Shown piece after piece: positions 3,613-49,807 of a DNA stretch of 64,000 bases. The notes under the pieces are model-generated. The model saw only the letters and a list, made by a program, of their open reading frames with translations. It was not told the DNA's origin and did not search any database. This DNA is from an uncultured Bdellovibrionales bacterium (GTDB lineage: Bacteria; Bdellovibrionota; UBA1018; CAIPTA01), in contig CAZTCD010000001.1 of assembly GCA_964612065.1 (NCBI GenBank), positions 7,013 through 71,012 of the forward strand, given 5' to 3'. Numbering within the stretch: the first letter of the stretch is position 1; each line of letters begins with the position of its first letter. The translations under genes were made by a program, and so were the position numbers.

Positions 3613-4301
3613 GGGGTTTCTCTTGTAGCTTCGAGCACTCCGTTTATCAAATAGGGCTTGTCATTTGTGAGCCAATTTCTTCCGCCGTCGATTGTGGATG
3701 CTTTGTAGATAAGCTCCTGGCCCCTGCGCATATCTTCTGCAAATTTTCCCTCTGAGCTGAATTGATCTGCATTCAGGCGAAACCAGGCCTCACCTTTCCC
3801 CAGGTTATCAACAAAAATTGTGTATAACTCGGAAGGGGGAAAGCCCGGAGAGGGGCGTTGGAGATTGCCCCCTGGGAACCAGCTTTCTCCGCTATCTTCG
3901 GTGATCCAGGTGAGAAATTCTGCGGAGGGCCCTTCGATACACGGCTCGATCAGGGCGATAATGCGACCATTCCATTGGTCATGAAAAACGTGAGAAAAGC
4001 AGTGGGAGGGGAGCCGATTCCGGAGATCCAGAACTTCTATCTCGCTTCCATTTTTTATCTCGATCACGGGACCAAAGCCGTACATCTTATCCATGGTTTT
4101 CTGATCTCCCTTAAAGGACATTTTTCCTTCATAAAGTCTGAAGGTGCGGTCTTTCCATTGAATGGCGTAGGCCTGCATTGACGGAAATCTCTCAGGAGCC
4201 TTCATCACGGAAGAGGGATGCAGCTTTATTGGATCGTTTCGGTGAATGGATGCGCCGGTGGTGCAGGCGCTTAGGAATAGTGCAAAAAATAAGAATCGCA
4301 T
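3609..4301 (-). CDS. hypothetical lipoprotein
   Basis: The ORF begins with a signal peptide and lipobox, MRFLFFALFLSAC. The start is placed at this Met rather than the upstream in-frame Met. There is no recognisable catalytic motif. Confidence 0.5.
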   Translation of the reverse strand: MRFLFFALFLSACTTGASIHRNDPIKLHPSSVMKAPERFPSMQAYAIQWKDRTFRLYEGKMSFKGDQKTMDKMYGFGPVIEIKNGSEIEVLDLRNRLPSHCFSHVFHDQWNGRIIALIEPCIEGPSAEFLTWITEDSGESWFPGGNLQRPSPGFPPSELYTIFVDNLGKGEAWFRLNADQFSSEGKFAEDMRRGQELIYKASTIDGGRNWLTNDKPYLINGVLEATRETP

Positions 4302-32113: not shown

Positions 32114-32668
32114 TTAATCTTTCTCTGATGAGCTCAACTGGCTTGCCGCGTCCAAATTCGCTTTTGTGATTAAAGCGAATGGAATGAGGAAGCGCTCATT
32201 GTCAGTTTCCAGTTCCACGGAGTCTCCATGGTATCCATGAAGCACTCCAAAAAAATTCTTCTGCTTTTGATGGTGCTCGAAATATCGAACATTCCCCATC
32301 TCGGTTTCAGTCAGCGGCCGGTAGGTTTTGATCTGAGCCTTTTTTCCAGCATGCTTTTGAAAGTCACTAGGCTTCTTAAGCGGCCGGTCCAAGCCGGGAC
32401 TGGATACTTCCAGAGTAAAGGTATCAGCCAAAATCTCTTCAAAAGACGGACTTTCGAAAAGAGGATCCAGGCCATGGTCTACCGATACGCAGTCATCAAA
32501 GGAAATGCCATTTCCCTCTGGGTTCTCGATGAAAAGACGAAGTACCGCGCCGCCATGATTGGTTCTAGGAAGGTATTCCAGATCCAGCAATTCATAGCCG
32601 AGTTTTTTAACCTCGGGAGCGATCAAATCTTCCAGTCGGCTCGCAAGCGAGCCCGGTCCTTGTTTCAT
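32114..32668 (-). CDS. rimP: ribosome maturation factor RimP
   Basis: LEDLIAPEVKKLGYELLDLEY...LEVSSPGLDRPL is the RimP core. The start is set at MKQGPGS; the track ORF extends 30 aa further upstream to 32758. Confidence 0.7.
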   Translation of the reverse strand: MKQGPGSLASRLEDLIAPEVKKLGYELLDLEYLPRTNHGGAVLRLFIENPEGNGISFDDCVSVDHGLDPLFESPSFEEILADTFTLEVSSPGLDRPLKKPSDFQKHAGKKAQIKTYRPLTETEMGNVRYFEHHQKQKNFFGVLHGYHGDSVELETDNERFLIPFALITKANLDAASQLSSSEKD

Positions 32669-32964
32669 CGTTATCGGTGTTTCCGCCTGTTGATCTTTTC
32701 GCTCTCTTCTGAAGAGCGGCTTAAATCTGCGGGCCCTCGAGGAAGAGCTTTCCTTCAAAGCGCGGCCGGCAAAACTGGCAGTTGGCTTAAAAAAAAAGCC
32801 CCTCTGACGAGAAGCTCACACCTGGGTTGATAACAAAAGCACCTTTAAAAGGCAAGGCCAGAAAGGCCATGAATTTCAACGGGATAAGTGAATTTTGGAC
32901 CAGCCGCATGAATCGCCCGGTTAAGGGGGAAAAGCTGAATAATTTCAATTATCCGCAAGCCGGT

Positions 32965-32993
32965 TTGACACGGGATTCCAGGGGTTCGAGAAT
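32965..32993 (+). promoter_or_regulatory. candidate sigma70-type promoter for the metalloprotease gene pair
   Basis: A TTGACA hexamer at 32965-32970 is followed by a 17-nt spacer and GAGAAT at 32988-32993. It lies about 90 nt upstream of the ATG at 33081. It is read by eye only. Confidence 0.3.
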
Positions 32994-33080: not shown

Positions 33081-33908
33081 ATGCTGAAACATCTCCTGAT
33101 AATGGCCATTGTGCTGATTCATTTCTCGGGATGCTATGCGCGCCCTTCGAATGCCCTTAATGCCGGCCGTGTAATTAATTATACCAGCTGCGTGCTTCCG
33201 AAAGATCAGGGTGTGGGAAGCCTCCATGGGAAGTGGGCCAATCTGCCCGTGCCGGTGGTTTTCGACAAAGACTTCTATGTTGCTGACGAGGGTGAAGTGA
33301 TTCCTTCGATGAGAGGGGCATTGCAGAGCTGGAACAATTGGGCAACGCTTCGAGGCCTCGAGGCTTTCAGCTTGAAAAACGATGGATCGGGAATCACCGC
33401 CGGCCGAGAAATTCCGGAACTTACAGACTGTGCGCAGGCTTCCTATTCTTCCTCCATAACCGATATGGTGGGGATCTGGAAAATCAATGGTGCCGGGTTT
33501 CATGCAAATCAGCGTGCGAGTTGCGGAACTCTTTCTAACGGCCAGCCAGGGAGAATTCTTCCCTTTGCGGTACAAGGCCAAACAGATTGGATTATTCAAA
33601 GCGGTAAAATCATCGGTTCAAGCATTCTCCTGAATTTTGAAGACTATAATGCTCCTGGTAAGCAGAGGATCGATGTGGAAAGTCTCCTGCTACATGAAAT
33701 GGGGCATGTATTGGGGCTTCTGCATAGCTGCAACGGCTCAAGCGGCGATTCCCGCGACTCCACCACTTCTCCCGCCTGCTTTTCAAATGGTCTGCTCTCT
33801 GCGCCTCCTCAATATACCAATGCAGTGATGTTTCCCTTTCTGGAAGTGGCCCAAGAGAGAAGGGATCTTAAGCAAAACGATTATCACAGAATCAATTGCC
33901 TTTATTGA
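33081..33908 (+). CDS. metzincin-type zinc metalloprotease lipoprotein
   Basis: The lipobox is IHFSGC. The full metzincin zinc site is HEMGHVLGLLH (HExxHxxGxxH). Confidence 0.7.
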   Translation: MLKHLLIMAIVLIHFSGCYARPSNALNAGRVINYTSCVLPKDQGVGSLHGKWANLPVPVVFDKDFYVADEGEVIPSMRGALQSWNNWATLRGLEAFSLKNDGSGITAGREIPELTDCAQASYSSSITDMVGIWKINGAGFHANQRASCGTLSNGQPGRILPFAVQGQTDWIIQSGKIIGSSILLNFEDYNAPGKQRIDVESLLLHEMGHVLGLLHSCNGSSGDSRDSTTSPACFSNGLLSAPPQYTNAVMFPFLEVAQERRDLKQNDYHRINCLY

Positions 33909-33914
33909 GGATGG

Positions 33915-35060
33915 GTGATTCGCGTGCGGACTCTGCTGATTCCTATAATATTTTGGCTGCCCCTTGCTATGGCGAGCGAGCTTTCGCCTGAGATCCAGAA
34001 GGCACTGGCGGAAACGGAGGCCAGGATTCAAAAGCTTAAGGCAGAAGGAAAGCTGCCGACCGGACCGGAGCTCTCAGCTGCCACGCGTGAGCCGGCTAAA
34101 GCCAAACCGCCATCCGGCTGCACCAGGCTGGAAGTGGGAGGTGCTGCGATCATCCACTATGTCACCGACCAAGAGAGCCCCACGGGAGTGAAGGCTGCGT
34201 ATGGATTGAGTCGGCATGGTGAAAAGCTCTGGCTGGCGGAGGTCCGGGTACATTTTGTAAAGGGAGAAAGTTATCCAAAACCGGAAGAGGCAAATAGCAA
34301 GGTAGACGAAGCTTATCGAAAACGAATTGGAGATTGCCTGAGCGGCTATAGAGGGAAGCTCAAAGGAAAAGAAGGCCGCGAACTAATCATTCGCCTCTCT
34401 GATAACCCATCGATTCCTGAGCAAGAGATTCAGATCATGGGTTACGGATTCCGGAGCAACAGCCACCAGTATGAAGCCAATATCATCTGCCCTGTGGTAC
34501 TGCACGAAACACTGCATCTTCTCGGGCTAGTGGATGAATATGCCCATAAGCCTGCGATGCACGAAGACTATCATGATTGCCGACCGGCTGCACCTCCGGA
34601 TTCCATAATGGGCAGCCACCTCAAAGCGGAATTGGCGCTTATACCGACGACGATTTACGAAATTGAGATGTGTGCCTGTGAGAAAAAAGGCACGGCCTGC
34701 TGGGAGCTCTCCACCAAGAGCGATGGAAAGAAGTGCCCGCCAGGATCAAAATCTGTTTTCGAAAAAGTGGATCCTGCTATCCGCACCTCTCTGAATGCAA
34801 TGAATACCAACGAAAAATTTGTGCTGGATCTTGGAAGGATGAGGGAAAGCGGCGAAACGCTTCCACCCAAAGAAAGCATTCTCTATCCGGCGCATTTTCG
34901 CGCTATCACTGAGCCGGGCTGCAGAGACGTGAACGAGGCTTACTACTCCTGCGGTCAAAACGCATACAGGTCCTCCAAGCCTGCTTCCGGTGAGGAGGCA
35001 GACCGATGCAAGGCAGTGCCGAATGCCTGCCGATGGCGGAGTTTCAAGTGGCTGGAGTAG
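33915..35060 (+). CDS. secreted Cys-rich zinc metalloprotease with an HExxHxxGxxD (snapalysin-like) motif
   Basis: The signal peptide is MIRVRTLLIPIIFWLPLAMA. The zinc motif is HETLHLLGLVDE. The C-terminal half has about 10 Cys. A GTG start lies 6 nt after the upstream gene's stop. Confidence 0.6.
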   Translation: MIRVRTLLIPIIFWLPLAMASELSPEIQKALAETEARIQKLKAEGKLPTGPELSAATREPAKAKPPSGCTRLEVGGAAIIHYVTDQESPTGVKAAYGLSRHGEKLWLAEVRVHFVKGESYPKPEEANSKVDEAYRKRIGDCLSGYRGKLKGKEGRELIIRLSDNPSIPEQEIQIMGYGFRSNSHQYEANIICPVVLHETLHLLGLVDEYAHKPAMHEDYHDCRPAAPPDSIMGSHLKAELALIPTTIYEIEMCACEKKGTACWELSTKSDGKKCPPGSKSVFEKVDPAIRTSLNAMNTNEKFVLDLGRMRESGETLPPKESILYPAHFRAITEPGCRDVNEAYYSCGQNAYRSSKPASGEEADRCKAVPNACRWRSFKWLE

Positions 35061-35065
35061 TTGCC

Positions 35066-35554
35066 TTAAGGAGTAGGGGGAAGCCGGCCGTGAAAATCTT
35101 CAATTCTGAGCTCAGTGATATATTTTTTGCCGTTGCTTTCATACGGGGCACTGGCGGAACCAAAAGTCTGTGGGCGCGAGTTTTCGGAGAATTCTATTCT
35201 AGAGCTGGCTCGAGGCGTGGGGGAGGAATTCACCCCTGCTTCGGTGGAGACAGAGTACTCACCTGGATTGCTGTTCTTGGTGCGTAGAACAATCACGTGA
35301 AAGGAAGCTGGAACGGGTGAGGTCTCCTGATAGGTCCAGTGGCCCATCTGTTGATCCAGCACTTCCACACTCAGCCAAAGCTTGAGGGGCTCCAGCTTTT
35401 TCTCATGCGCCAGGCATTCGCTTTTGTGCTGGAATACAGCAGGGCATTCGAAAATACGAACTGTTGGAGTGAACTTTACGGTGGGCATTGCCGCCCCTTG
35501 GGCCATCACTGTAAGGAGCATCAGGCCAAAATAAATTAATCCAACATATCTCAC
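35066..35554 (-). CDS. hypothetical secreted protein
   Basis: The signal peptide is MRYVGLIYFGLMLLTVMAQGAA. Its start overlaps the stop of the HD gene by 4 nt, so the two are co-transcribed. Confidence 0.5.
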   Translation of the reverse strand: MRYVGLIYFGLMLLTVMAQGAAMPTVKFTPTVRIFECPAVFQHKSECLAHEKKLEPLKLWLSVEVLDQQMGHWTYQETSPVPASFHVIVLRTKNSNPGEYSVSTEAGVNSSPTPRASSRIEFSENSRPQTFGSASAPYESNGKKYITELRIEDFHGRLPPTP

Positions 35555-36975
35555 AGGAGCCCTTTCGCCCTGAGCAGTGCTTGGGCTTTTTGGTTCATGT
35601 AGAGCACGGGAATGAAATTCACGACGTTGGAGAGAATTCTGATAATGGAATTCTCCCGATCAATGAGCAAGCTCACCTTGCCTGTCCGGTCCATGATCTT
35701 CACGGGATCGCGTTCCTGAAGGAGGTTGTCCGTGGTTCGCTTTTTCACAATGTCGCTCATGGAGCGCGAGAAAACGATATCGGAGTGGGGGATGTCGTAG
35801 AGAATCCACTCTGTTCCATCGCCTTCCTGTTTGATGCAATCCTGGAATTTATGAACCAGCTCTTCGATTCGCTTAACTATATTTTCTCGCTCCCGAATGC
35901 CAGCTTCGTCGCGAGCAACCAGCTTGTGCTCGAATGGTGGCAAAAGATACTCCACCGGGCTTTGCCGGAAGAGGAGCATCTTGATCATCTCAGCAATCTT
36001 TTTGTCCTTCACTGTGCCTTCGAGATGCGCCTGATGCACGGTGTTCATGAAATAAAAATCATTGAAACCGAAGAATCTCTCTGGATCATTCTCCACCATT
36101 CCGAGTACGTCCTGGAACTGGTGGATCATTCTTTTTTCCAAGAAATGTTTTGTTATGGTTTCGGCCAGAATGTCGTACTTGGCCCCGCCGGAATTCCGGA
36201 TCACCTGGGAGTACCAGGCGAATCTGGCGATTAGAAAGTCTTCAACGGAGTGCAGGGCATTGTCCTTGATGGCAAGCCCGGGGCGTCCGTCCCCGGTATC
36301 GAACGTGGTCATATGGTAGAGGATGAACTCTCTGTCGAACTGGCCATACTTCAGGCCGGTGTAGTGAGCATCGCGCATTAGATAATCCATCCGGTCGCAG
36401 TCCACTTCGGAATGAAGAATCTGGTTGCCGAGAATATTGGGATTCGTTCCTTTTACGTATCTTGAAATTTCCTGGGTATCGATCCCGTCTTCGTGGAGAA
36501 TTCTGGTGATTCCGTTTTCATAATCAGTGTTTTTAAGGATGTATGCACCGAGATGCTCGTGGTTGTTAGGCAGGGGCTTTCCGCGCTCGCCCTTTTTGAA
36601 AGAGGAGTCTCCGTGCTCTATATATGCCCCTTCACAAGTATGAGAGAAGGGAAAGGTGCCAATATCGTGAAGTAGAGCGGATATCCGCATACTCTTGTGA
36701 AAAAGAGTGGCCGGATCGGTGGCGGAAACGTCATAAAGTTTCTCATCTGGAACTGCTTTTCCAATCGCGCGGCAGATTTGATCTGCCATGTGCATCACGC
36801 CCAGGGCATGGGCGTATCTATTATGTTCGGCACCAGGGAATACATAGTTTGAGAATCCCAGCTGCCTGATCCAGCGCAGGCGGAGATAGAAGGGGGAATG
36901 AATGATGCGGTATTCAGTTTCTGTTAGCCGAATGAACCCATATAAGGGATCGTAAACGATTTTTCCTTGTTTCAT
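35551..36975 (-). CDS. HD-domain phosphohydrolase, dNTP triphosphohydrolase-like (COG1078/SAMHD1-type)
   Basis: NRYAHALGVMHMA is the family RxxHSLgV motif. LLHDIGTFPFSH is the metal-binding HD motif. DCDRMDYLMRD is the family D..D..R region. The 474-aa length is typical for the family. Confidence 0.7.
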   Translation of the reverse strand: MKQGKIVYDPLYGFIRLTETEYRIIHSPFYLRLRWIRQLGFSNYVFPGAEHNRYAHALGVMHMADQICRAIGKAVPDEKLYDVSATDPATLFHKSMRISALLHDIGTFPFSHTCEGAYIEHGDSSFKKGERGKPLPNNHEHLGAYILKNTDYENGITRILHEDGIDTQEISRYVKGTNPNILGNQILHSEVDCDRMDYLMRDAHYTGLKYGQFDREFILYHMTTFDTGDGRPGLAIKDNALHSVEDFLIARFAWYSQVIRNSGGAKYDILAETITKHFLEKRMIHQFQDVLGMVENDPERFFGFNDFYFMNTVHQAHLEGTVKDKKIAEMIKMLLFRQSPVEYLLPPFEHKLVARDEAGIRERENIVKRIEELVHKFQDCIKQEGDGTEWILYDIPHSDIVFSRSMSDIVKKRTTDNLLQERDPVKIMDRTGKVSLLIDRENSIIRILSNVVNFIPVLYMNQKAQALLRAKGLL

Positions 36976-46640: not shown

Positions 46641-47282
46641 TTAGAGCTTGGTTAACTGCCTTCGATGAAAGAAGGTAAGCGTAGAGAGAATCTGCGCAAA
46701 TCCGAGCAGAAACACGTTTATCACCGGAATGAACAACAACAGATTCAACAAGAGCCCCAGAAAAAAATTTGAAACCGGATTCTTAAAGAACAAGCGAACT
46801 CGGAATGACAAGCGCTGGTCAAATCTGCCGTAAATGGCGCATAGAAAAGAATAGGCAGCAAGCCAGGCGATGAGAATGAACTGTACAGGTGCAAGAAGGG
46901 GAATCAAGGAGAGCGCCAGCAGGAATAAAGCCGCAGCAGCCACAAGAAGCGAGTGAAAAAACTCCCTGGCCAACCGTTTCATGCCGAAGTCCGGTGCAGG
47001 AATTTTTACTTCTCCGTAAACAGCGCGCTGAACCTCATCAATAATAGGATCTTCCACGGGTAGAAGGGAGAGTTTTCCAAAGACTAACCATGTGAGTAGG
47101 AAGACCAGCATCATGGCTGGTAATGAGATCCAAAGAGCGCTGGCTTGTAGAAGTGACTGCCACGTCAGATAAACTACAACCGATGCTGACGCAAAGGTAA
47201 TAACGCCAGGAAAGACGCCCAAAGCAAATAGCTTTGGGCGCGTAAAGAACAGCTTAATTGCATGAAAAGGAAGTGAGATCAC
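46641..47282 (-). CDS. hypothetical polytopic membrane protein (CysZ/EI24-like topology)
   Basis: The 213-aa ORF contains 4-5 TM helices. Its start overlaps the stop of the upstream metalloprotease gene by 4 nt. Confidence 0.35.
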   Translation of the reverse strand: MISLPFHAIKLFFTRPKLFALGVFPGVITFASASVVVYLTWQSLLQASALWISLPAMMLVFLLTWLVFGKLSLLPVEDPIIDEVQRAVYGEVKIPAPDFGMKRLAREFFHSLLVAAAALFLLALSLIPLLAPVQFILIAWLAAYSFLCAIYGRFDQRLSFRVRLFFKNPVSNFFLGLLLNLLLFIPVINVFLLGFAQILSTLTFFHRRQLTKL

Positions 47283-49807
47283 TTTTTCGCGTCTTGGTTT
47301 TTCTCAGCAGGTTTCCTCAAGAGCGCGGCCTTTAACGATCGCGCTACCTCGCGTTTTTGCGGAGAATCTGCATCTTGAATTTCGGCTTCAAGCATAATTT
47401 TAATACGGCCTGCCAGGCTTTGGTAGGCTTCCGACTGGTAATAAGACTTGAGTGCCTTGATGGATTCCATCCTTTCGGCGGCCGGCCGGTCATTCGTCCC
47501 TGCTTTTGCAGAAGCAAGCGATACCAATCCATTCATTACAACTTGTTCCAAATCCATTTTTTGGCCATTTCGTATATGAAAGGCGAGTGGTGCCGTAGGC
47601 GTGTTTCCCAAAGACTGGATGAATCTGAGTCTAAGTCTCGAAAGCAGGGCGGTTTCCATTCCCTTATAGGCTTTATCCAAGGCGGCTTCCAACGTCTTAA
47701 GCAAGGCTTCTTGATCTGTACGTTCGAGGCCTGCCACATAGGCAGAATTGGAAAGATAAGACAGAAGCTTGGTTTTGGTTGGATCCACGGCCGCACGAGT
47801 CACCGCCGGAAATTCATTCATTCCAATTCCCGCTTCAAAAGCTTGCAGCGCACGGTCACGCATCTCTTCTTCCTTCAGTCCTTCAGGTAGCACATCCTCT
47901 CGGAACACTTTCAAGGACTTCACGGACTGCGAGGCGAGATATCCGAAGCTGTTGGCGCTTGCGGCAATGTAGATGCCGGCGGTTCCAGAGACGCCAGCTA
48001 TCCCTTTTTTCATAGCCGCAATGAGTTCGTCTTTCGTCTTTACCGCGGACGCAGGAGGAAGAGAGAGCAGGGCATTGTCCATCTTTTCAGAAGTGATGGA
48101 TTGCATTCTTCCTCTATGTGCACCTTCTTTTGTGAAAAGCTCCAAGGCGCGAAGCGCTTGTGCCGTTGGGTCCGCCCCAATATCGTATCGATTGCAAAGG
48201 GGATCTACTCCGCCTTCATTTGAGTCGGCTTCTTCATCGTTGCAGGCGGAAAGCTCCGGATCCTGATCTTTTACATCTTTGCCTTCGTTATAGAGCACGG
48301 AGATGATCTGCCGGTCATACTCAAGGAGAGGGCCACTACTCTCTTCCAGGGCTGAGAAGGCACCGTCCTCTTCATTATAGTGATTGTAGTCCATAATGGA
48401 GGTGGAAAACGGCTTAGACGAGTCGTCTGCGTCGTAAGAAAGAGATCCACGGAAGTTGTGAGCAAGCCCGAGGGCGTGCCCAACTTCATGCATCACCACT
48501 CCCTTTAAAAGTTCTCTTGCAAACTCATCGGGCTTAACATCCGAATCGATTCGCACATTGAGCTCCTTGGCAGCCTCCATGCAGTGAATTGGAATTTTTC
48601 TGCCTGCAATTTTCCGCTTTGAAAGCAGCCGCTTTACTGCATCAACGCGAAGCATACGCTGTTGGTCGGTGTCGTCAGGCACTTGCGAGCCGGGGGTGAT
48701 TTTAGTCCAGTAGTCCTTGCCGATATTGATCCAGGCCAATGGAATATAAATCAAACTCTGGGTCTGGATTCCGGTAACGGGATCGGCATTTTGGCTTTCG
48801 TAAGCCGCGCCAGCTTCCTGAACAGTGTCCCACACGATCGTATTGAATCTCGGATCTCCCAGCTTAATCCCTTCTGGCAGCTTGCCTTCAAAGCGAATCA
48901 GATTTGGGATGTAACGGTTCCAGGCCTCAACGCCGTTTCTAATGTCTTTTAGGTATTGCTCTGGCACATTGCCGAAAACGTACCACTTAATTGGCTCTCC
49001 ATTTTTGCGGAGGAAGCGATTTGCGGCTTTGGTTTTTGTGCGAACACCAGGTTTAGATTCGTGAAAAAAGTCGCCTGCATCAAGAAATCGATAGCGTTCT
49101 GCCAGTGGATTTTCTTCCGCATTCGCCAGGATCGGTTTTGCGTCTGCTGGAATCACTAGATCGCGCGGGCGGATGGATTCCATGAAGCCGGCACGGCTAC
49201 CATCTTTTTCTTCAATCGTAGTCTCGATCAAAAAAAGTTCATCGGCAGCAATATGTTCGATAGATCGAATGTAAGAATACTTTTCCCCCTTTGATTCCTT
49301 CCCGAAAACAAAAGTTCCCAGAATAGGGGAGGCATTTTCTGTTTTAACGGTAATTAAATCCCCAACCCGGGCAACGATTGGAAGGTCCAAAATCAAGCGA
49401 GGTGGCATCGGTACGTCGCTCTCAAAGTTGATGCTCGCATCAGTCTCTAGACGAAGGCGATTGGCAAAAATTCGGAAATGAGCAGGAAGCTGGGTAAGCG
49501 AAATACCCATTAACGCGGTTTCTAACTCTTCCTCTCGAATAGACGAATTCTGAAGAGCGGCTCCGTATAAAAAAGTGCGGTTCAGCAGAGATTTAGTATC
49601 AAGGGTGATGGTTGCCTCAATTGATCCTGCAATGCGCCCGGGAATCAGGCTGCCGTCAGCTCCGATTGCCGGGGCCTTGGTTTCCTGCAGTTCTTTCACC
49701 TGAAGAGACTGAACTATAGGGGATGGCTCGCTCTCTTTCGAACATGAAAAAAGAGTGAAAGCTGAAATGGAAAGAGCGGCAAGCAAGAGCGATCGATGAG
49801 GCAGCAT
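47279..49807 (-). CDS. large metzincin-type zinc metalloprotease lipoprotein
   Basis: The lipobox is LFSC. The zinc motif is HEVGHALGLAHNF (HExxHxxGxxH). Size is 842 aa. Confidence 0.65.
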   Translation of the reverse strand: MLPHRSLLLAALSISAFTLFSCSKESEPSPIVQSLQVKELQETKAPAIGADGSLIPGRIAGSIEATITLDTKSLLNRTFLYGAALQNSSIREEELETALMGISLTQLPAHFRIFANRLRLETDASINFESDVPMPPRLILDLPIVARVGDLITVKTENASPILGTFVFGKESKGEKYSYIRSIEHIAADELFLIETTIEEKDGSRAGFMESIRPRDLVIPADAKPILANAEENPLAERYRFLDAGDFFHESKPGVRTKTKAANRFLRKNGEPIKWYVFGNVPEQYLKDIRNGVEAWNRYIPNLIRFEGKLPEGIKLGDPRFNTIVWDTVQEAGAAYESQNADPVTGIQTQSLIYIPLAWINIGKDYWTKITPGSQVPDDTDQQRMLRVDAVKRLLSKRKIAGRKIPIHCMEAAKELNVRIDSDVKPDEFARELLKGVVMHEVGHALGLAHNFRGSLSYDADDSSKPFSTSIMDYNHYNEEDGAFSALEESSGPLLEYDRQIISVLYNEGKDVKDQDPELSACNDEEADSNEGGVDPLCNRYDIGADPTAQALRALELFTKEGAHRGRMQSITSEKMDNALLSLPPASAVKTKDELIAAMKKGIAGVSGTAGIYIAASANSFGYLASQSVKSLKVFREDVLPEGLKEEEMRDRALQAFEAGIGMNEFPAVTRAAVDPTKTKLLSYLSNSAYVAGLERTDQEALLKTLEAALDKAYKGMETALLSRLRLRFIQSLGNTPTAPLAFHIRNGQKMDLEQVVMNGLVSLASAKAGTNDRPAAERMESIKALKSYYQSEAYQSLAGRIKIMLEAEIQDADSPQKREVARSLKAALLRKPAEKNQDAKK

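Follow-up and report, generated by a model that had tools for sequence, protein, structure and literature searches.

Two evolutionarily unrelated, putatively exported metzincin-type metallopeptidases encoded side by side in an uncultured Bdellovibrionales bacterium

Introduction

Why do two zinc metallopeptidases with different third zinc ligands lie next to each other in the DNA of an uncultured Bdellovibrionales bacterium, and do they work as a unit? The question concerns two adjacent genes, referred to here as gene 1 and gene 2, in a stretch of 64,000 nucleotides (nt; assembly GCA_964612065.1, contig CAZTCD010000001.1, positions 7,013 to 71,012 of the forward strand), which we call the window. 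What sets one metzincin family apart from another is its third ligand, together with the family-specific residue, the connecting segment and the arrangement of disulfides, and these are the kinds of feature that differ in the present case. The original prediction, made from the letters of the window, was of a membrane-tethered lipoprotein and a soluble Cys-rich protease expressed from a common promoter, with complementary substrates and a place in the hydrolytic arsenal of a predator. The explanation that we favour, with a probability of roughly 70%, is that a conserved promoter drives one transcript encoding two evolutionarily unrelated, exported zinc endopeptidases of the metzincin type. The genes and the promoter are the following.

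33081..33908, plus strand: gene 1, 275 amino acids (aa), ATG start; putative lipoprotein with a matrix metalloproteinase (MMP)-like, M10-type metzincin catalytic domain
33915..35060, plus strand: gene 2, 381 aa, GTG start; putative secreted Cys-rich metzincin-like metallopeptidase with an Asp third zinc ligand, of an unclassified family
32965..32993, plus strand: candidate sigma-70-type promoter of the gene 1-gene 2 transcript; -35 hexamer TTGACA at 32965-32970, 17-nt spacer, -10 hexamer GAGAAT at 32988-32993

Results

The two open reading frames (ORFs) lie on the same strand exactly as first described, with 6 nt between the gene 1 stop codon (TGA, 33906-33908) and the GTG of gene 2 at 33915. 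An identical gene 2 protein in a public gene call (P0001, 378 aa) begins at the in-frame GTG 33924, which leaves a 15-nt gap; in our own reading of the sequence, the GAGGA at 33907-33911 would be better spaced for a start at 33924 than for one at 33915. The GC content of gene 2 is 0.53, compared to 0.50 for the window, and composition and codon usage gave no sign of a recent foreign origin of this gene. Downstream of the gene 2 stop codon, as far as position 35569, the plus strand showed no terminator-like site.

The candidate promoter precedes the ATG of gene 1 by about 87 nt and matches the consensus at 10 of 12 positions. Taken alone, such a consensus match is at chance level, with 2 sites observed against 2.2 expected in shuffled sequences. 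Nevertheless, the promoter claim held up once orthologous loci were compared. Of 12 loci, 10 have a match to TTGAC[AT]-N17/18-GA[GAC]AAT ahead of their gene 1 ortholog, compared to 0.5% of random 331-nt windows, and in the alignment of the orthologous upstream regions both hexamers are conserved, while the spacer and the flanks diverge. Because the hexamers recur in this way, we consider the promoter well supported. That it drives a two-gene transcript from 32965-32993 is part of the favoured explanation and shares its joint probability.

The sequences support the view that both genes encode exported metzincin-type zinc metallopeptidases, which differ in the third ligand, presumed to be His in gene 1 and Asp in gene 2. 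The features of gene 1 on which this view rests are listed below.

33081..33134, plus strand: gene 1 signal peptide with the lipobox F15-S-G-C18 at its end, read from the sequence
33693..33725, plus strand: gene 1 zinc motif H205-E-M-G-H209-V-L-G212-L-L-H215 (HEMGHVLGLLH), followed by S216 and C217; from family conservation
33822..33836, plus strand: gene 1 Met-turn A248-V-M250-F-P252; M250 in 121/121 homologs, P252 in 120/121

The reading of gene 1 as a lipoprotein (FSGC) with a full metzincin site agrees with our results, the lipobox ending at C18 and the zinc motif spanning residues 205-215. Among the 121 homologs, H205, G212, S216, C217, D226, C233 and M250 are invariant; H209, H215, P252, C273 and the last residue, Y275, each differ in just one sequence (120/121), and the catalytic E206 is retained in 116. 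With this degree of conservation the motifs are not fortuitous, and the Met-turn that had been proposed as a check is indeed found downstream of the zinc motif. Gene 1 thus combines an extended zinc motif, a Met-turn beyond the third ligand and the catalytic-domain fold, which are the marks of a metzincin. At the lipobox position of the alignment, 90 of the 121 homologs have a Cys, preceded by G, A or S in most of the 30 that were aligned there. In the proposed mechanism, the protein would be exported by the Sec pathway, lipidated at C18 and tethered to a membrane, where H205, H209 and H215 would bind zinc, E206 would act as the general base, and M250 would form the Met-turn under the metal. 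In five of the 121 homologs (family P0021-P0140) E206 is replaced by Q, H or S, with the zinc ligands retained.

The Pfam matrixin family (PF00413, M10) matched gene 1 with 33.6 bits, above the gathering cut-off of 24. In matrixins, the family-specific residue is a Ser immediately after the third His, and we take S216 to be its counterpart, based on established knowledge of metzincin families. Bacterial enzymes of the MMP-like type are exemplified by karilysin, and from its sequence gene 1 is a member of this known kind, a bacterial MMP-like lipoprotein. It shares the catalytic-domain type of the matrixins (MEROPS M10A) at an identity to MMPs of about 17-21%, but differs from them in several respects. 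It carries a putative lipoprotein anchor, it lacks the PRCGxPD cysteine-switch prodomain (no PRCG occurs in the gene 1 sequence), its third His is separated from the Met-turn by an insertion of about 30 residues containing a C217...C233 pair, and it possesses six conserved Cys and an invariant C-terminal C-L-Y. Across the family, C-x-Y at the C-terminus is found in all proteins but one. Between the lipid anchor and the catalytic domain lies a conserved segment, N-Y-T-x-C37-x-L-P-x-D42-Q-G, modelled with low confidence, which could be a prosegment or a disulfide-tethered linker. More than 120 homologs of gene 1 were found at 46-85% identity, all of them in metagenomes or metagenome-assembled genomes (MAGs). 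Their sources are named Bdellovibrionota, Oligoflexia, Bacteriovoracia or Bdellovibrionales, which supports Bdellovibrionota as the host lineage.

For gene 2, the corresponding features are as follows.

33915..33977, plus strand: gene 2 type I signal peptide, MIRVRTLLIPIIFWLPLAMA/SE (the slash marks the predicted cleavage), with an A-x-A cleavage motif, read from the sequence
33978..34112, plus strand: gene 2 segment with, in the predicted structure, an N-terminal helix at residues 25-43 and a linker of low confidence at 44-66; pLDDT (model confidence) below 50 for residues 46-61
34503..34541, plus strand: gene 2 zinc motif HETLHLLGLVDEY, residues 197-209, H197-E-T-L-H201-L-L-G204-L-V-D207-E208-Y209
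34578..34610, plus strand: gene 2 C222-R223, then the Met-turn candidate S230-I-M232; from family conservation
34647..34769, plus strand: gene 2 inserted module (about residues 245-285) with C253, C255, C262 and C274, delimited by Cys co-loss; predicted strands 245-255 and 278-285, predicted helix 260-268

The HExxHxxGxxD motif that had been read in gene 2 is present as HETLHLLGLVD at residues 197-207, with Asp as the presumed third ligand. To relatives 25-35% identical to the query, aligned as 162 sequences, the following conservation applies: H197, E198, H201, G204, D207 and C222 are invariant, Y209 and R223 are each kept in 161, M232 in 160, S230 in 158 and E208 in 149. The pattern HExxHxxGLxD as such is likewise invariant. 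A fortuitous motif is ruled out by the invariance of the zinc residues across sequences as divergent as these, and S230-x-M232 stands out as the conserved Met-turn candidate. Gene 2 contains a second HExxH (HEDYH, 216-220), which we dismissed as the active site; it falls in a variable part of the family alignment. In the structural model, strands are followed by a long helix (127-143), more strands, the active-site helix (192-202) and C-terminal helices, an order that fits the metzincin layout and lends weak structural support to the assignment.

Close homologs of gene 2 have equivalent hydrophobic N-termini with ARA/EE, VYA/EE and AHA/DD motifs. The protein would be exported by the Sec pathway, cleaved after A-M-A21, and folded with up to six disulfides in the periplasm or outside the cell. 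Zinc would be held by H197, H201 and D207. The role of general base would fall to E198 and that of the Met-turn to M232, and Y209 may be a "tyrosine switch". In the alignment, conservation of the segment 25-66 is confined to the closer homologs, and from P0013 onward the segment is missing or cannot be aligned, so that it is specific to the subclade of the window; this helix and linker may be a prosegment or a tether. Gene 2 has 12 Cys, nine of them downstream of the zinc motif, and the earlier count of about 10 in the C-terminal region was therefore a fair one. Four of these (C253, C255, C262 and C274) are jointly absent in 21 of the 162 relatives, and C255 and C262 are jointly absent in 11. 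Since they are lost together, residues 245-285 or so appear to be an optional four-Cys insert, and the co-loss patterns suggest the disulfides C255-C262, C253-C274 and C346-C372.

Profile-profile comparison (hhalign) of gene 1 with gene 2 aligned only 13 columns around the zinc helix, at 53% probability. A profile alignment limited to so few columns means that the two genes are not paralogs, and an origin of the pair by tandem duplication was rejected on the same ground.

The two genes also differ in their genomic distribution. In every genome examined (loci other than the window are labelled L001 and onward), gene 1 is transcribed away from rimP-nusA-infB and towards a highly conserved HD-domain gene of opposite orientation. 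Gene 2 lies between gene 1 and the HD side in only four confirmed genomes, namely the window, L001, L058 and L059, where it is 41-55% identical; the two genes are separated by 6 or 15 nt in the window and by 16-17 nt in L058 and L059, and overlap by 1 nt in L001. In L003-L010 the slot is without gene 2, gene 1 standing alone in all eight of these more distant genomes. Conversely, gene 2 relatives P0013 (38% identity) and P0015 (32%) reside in unrelated gene contexts, and of 33 metagenome loci with gene 2 relatives of 24-33% identity, 32 were rematched in the adjacency check and none (0/32) had a gene 1 neighbour. Across the same loci as the rimP comparison, gene 1 diverges at about the pace of that gene (50-69% identity for gene 1, 43-78% for rimP). 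In L001, the identities to the window are 69% for gene 1, 41% for gene 2 and 78% for rimP. These comparisons make gene 1 a core gene that evolves slowly and gene 2 a faster-diverging accessory passenger of the gene 1 transcript in one subclade.

A word-indexed search recovered only 20 homologs of gene 2, all annotated as hypothetical and one named Bdellovibrionota. By contrast, an exhaustive profile search returned at least 1,118 representatives of 50%-identity clusters at E<=1e-3, 640 of them at E<=1e-30. No Pfam domain was found in the N-terminal extensions of ten long relatives (403-768 aa). On several contigs (L028, L039, L046, L048 and L050), members of the gene 2 family occur as two or three paralogs in tandem, which suggests local expansion of the family in some genomes.

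The remaining elements of the neighbourhood lie on either side of the pair. The rimP ORF (32114-32758, minus strand) is 214 aa long with a TTG start. Similarity to the rimP of relatives begins only at residue 30-42, and the products called in relatives are 180-197 aa, so that the ORF is probably over-extended and the real start is likely the ATG giving MKQGPGS... In the rimP 5' leader (32740-32825, minus strand) there is a terminator-like hairpin, GAGCUUCUC-loop-GAGGGGCUU, followed by U8-9. It occurs in nine genomes (the window, L001, L003-L008 and L010) with an invariant stem and a variable loop, and a conserved GCGCUUUGAAGGAAA is found about 45 nt downstream of it. An Rfam search of the leader identified no family (the best hit, suhB/mmgR, scored 17.8 bits against a cut-off of 41), and RNAalifold pairs the U-run with a Shine-Dalgarno-like GAAGGAA, without covariation. 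The hairpin may be an autoregulatory attenuator of rimP-nusA-infB.

On the other side, orf162 (35066-35554, minus strand; 162 aa, hydrophobic N-terminus, no Pfam match) is convergent on gene 2, with 5 nt between the stop codons, and overlaps the end of the HD-domain gene (35551-36975) at 35551-35554. L001 and L010 have homologs of about 50% identity at this position, where L058 and L059 have ORFs of 164-177 aa. Full-length matches to the HD protein in these loci are 65-90% identical. Farther away, at 47279-49807 on the minus strand, an 842-aa ORF encodes a third metzincin-type protease, with HEVGHALGLAH near nt 48490 and a 68.8-bit match to Pfam PF16313 (DUF4953, "Met-zincin").

Discussion

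The favoured explanation, one transcript for two unrelated exported metzincin-type enzymes, has several points to contend with. The match of gene 1 to PF00413 is local, with residues 170-218 covering profile positions 96-127 of 159. The gene 1 homologs in which the catalytic Glu is replaced (5/121) may be inactive members of the family. Lipidation of gene 1 and disulfide formation in gene 2 are, moreover, deduced from sequence patterns only.

If the two enzymes are made together, what are they for? One possibility is that both are prey-degrading hydrolases of a predatory lifestyle, used in prey attack or entry. Such a role would be in keeping with the Bdellovibrionota, Bacteriovoracia, Oligoflexia or Bdellovibrionales names of the MAGs in which homologs are found, with the predicted export of both proteins, and with the third Met-zincin of 842 aa within the window. 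However, all carriers are uncultured MAGs, and gene 1 behaves as a slow-evolving core gene in fixed synteny with rimP-nusA-infB and the HD-domain gene, which is more typical of envelope maintenance. A core envelope function would account for the slow divergence of gene 1 and its housekeeping neighbourhood no less well than a role as a weapon, and we regard the predatory role as unlikely.

A second possibility is that the two proteases constitute a functional module, either because a tethered and a soluble enzyme would have complementary substrates, as the original prediction suggested, or because gene 1 would cut the N-terminal helix and linker from a gene 2 zymogen and so activate it. The tight spacing or overlap and the shared promoter in four genomes are what one would expect of a module; the subclade-specific helix and flexible linker could be a prosegment, and this subclade of gene 2 does not have the partner gene that accompanies most of the distant relatives (see below). 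Against this, all eight of the more distant genomes have gene 1 at this syntenic site but no gene 2 beside it, no gene 2 relative of 38% identity or less adjoins a gene 1 relative, and the two genes are not evolving in step, as the three L001 identities illustrate. Since gene 1 dispenses with gene 2 in those genomes and distant gene 2 relatives are never found beside gene 1, the pair is not a conserved two-protease module. The notion of complementary substrates consequently lacks comparative support, and cooperation between the two enzymes seems to us quite unlikely.

The next question is to which kind of metzincin gene 2 belongs. The original prediction described it as a snapalysin/M7-type enzyme. 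The motif part of that description stands, but the family part does not, for gene 2 did not match the snapalysin, M6 or M64 models. The gene 2 query had no match in Pfam (2025 copy), NCBIfam (2026) or the PDB sequences. Its family profile gave zero matches at E<=10 in the PDB sequences, and a Foldseek search of gene 2 against the PDB returned nothing significant. The snapalysin model NF033628 did not match the query, and among 45 relatives it matched two, with E of 0.13 or above. The igalysin model PF09471 (M64) likewise gave no match to the query and matched one of the 45 relatives, at E 0.0078. TIGR03296 (M6 domain) scored 10.8 bits on gene 2 against a cut-off of 110.8, and this over residues 184-212 only, the zinc helix. 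It gave a weak match in 28 of the 45 relatives (best E 5.9e-5) and was the only named model to recur across the family.

Asp seldom serves as the third ligand in metzincins; it does so in snapalysins, thuringilysins and igalysins (PMC12237041). With snapalysin (M7), gene 2 has in common the HExxHxxGxxD motif, the presumed Asp ligand and a conserved downstream Met (PMC3890501, PMC12237041), but snapalysin is a single domain of about 130 aa, compared to the 381 aa of gene 2. Thuringilysin and immune inhibitor A (M6) likewise use Asp as the third ligand (PMC12237041), and theirs is the sole named family with a recurrent weak signal. In the igalysin IgAse, the Asp ligand is followed by Glu, the "family-specific residue" in the sense in which that concept is applied to metzincins, and by Tyr, the putative Tyr switch, which together form D-E-Y (PMC12237041). 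The igalysins (M64; the IgAse of Thomasclavelia ramosa and its Bacteroides homologs) resemble gene 2 in this D-E-Y and in a long connecting segment before an x-I-M Met-turn (PMC12237041). Their motif, HExxHxxxGxxD, has an extra residue before the Gly, whereas that of gene 2 is the standard HExxHxxGxxD. These likenesses notwithstanding, it is improbable that gene 2 is a divergent member of M7 snapalysin, M6 thuringilysin/InhA or M64 igalysin. Judged by its sequence, gene 2 falls outside M7, M6 and M64, agrees at the sequence level with the definition of a metzincin, and would belong to an unclassified metzincin-like family. In the literature, we found no paper on Bdellovibrio metzincins of the gene 1 or gene 2 kind, nor on the gene 2 family.

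The distant relatives of gene 2 have a feature that the window does not. In 22 of their 33 loci (L024-L055), the protease has directly behind it, in the same orientation, an ORF of about 180-200 aa (typically about 195) with a signal peptide, whose start overlaps or abuts the protease stop codon in a translationally coupled arrangement, and which is sometimes duplicated; examples are L045:6152-6733, L043:6179-6769, and L039:3019-3600 and 3689-4282. Conserved pieces of this partner are SN[YFW]FD, RLG, PH and a C-terminal C-x6-9-C. It matched no Pfam family and no PDB sequence. A hidden Markov model of the partner, iterated three times, detected no copy in the window or in the gene 2 ortholog loci, including orf162 and the small ORFs of L001 and L003. 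The layout resembles that of protease-inhibitor or protease-chaperone pairs. The same order of genes is seen in Listeria, where a metzincin is paired with a TIMP-like lipoprotein (PMC8235301), and in CpaA with its chaperone (PDB 6o38). The partner differs from the proteins of such pairs in having no detectable Pfam or PDB similarity and in being absent from the window and the close gene 2 orthologs.

It is tempting to combine these observations into a fuller account of gene 2, to which we would give slightly less than even odds. Gene 2 would represent a previously undescribed metzincin family, present as more than 1,000 clusters in environmental bacteria and characterized by an Asp ligand, G-L-x-D-E-Y, C-R...S-x-M, up to six disulfides and an optional four-Cys insert. 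The ancestral state would be a two-gene cassette with the secreted partner of about 195 aa, perhaps an inhibitor, an immunity protein or a chaperone. The branch of the window would have lost the partner, gained the N-terminal helix and linker, and become co-transcribed with the core MMP-like lipoprotein.

That gene 2 is instead a non-catalytic homolog, a binding protein or pseudo-enzyme with the motif as a relic, would agree with its weak similarity to solved peptidases but is most improbable, since the invariance of H197, E198, H201, G204 and D207 in 162 sequences only 25-35% identical, with M232 kept in nearly all, points to purifying selection on the active site and argues against a pseudo-enzyme.

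Concluding remarks

In a lineage with a rich secretome, neither gene comes as a great surprise, and no long-standing question hangs on them; the locus is rather a useful lead for protease specialists. Gene 1 is an unusually conserved MMP-like lipoprotein encoded beside rimP-nusA-infB in one uncultured Bdellovibrionota lineage, and as such a candidate core envelope protease. With more than 1,000 clusters outside the coverage of Pfam, NCBIfam and the PDB, the gene 2 family would genuinely enlarge the protease catalogue, and its frequent pairing with a secreted partner points to an undescribed protease-regulator system.

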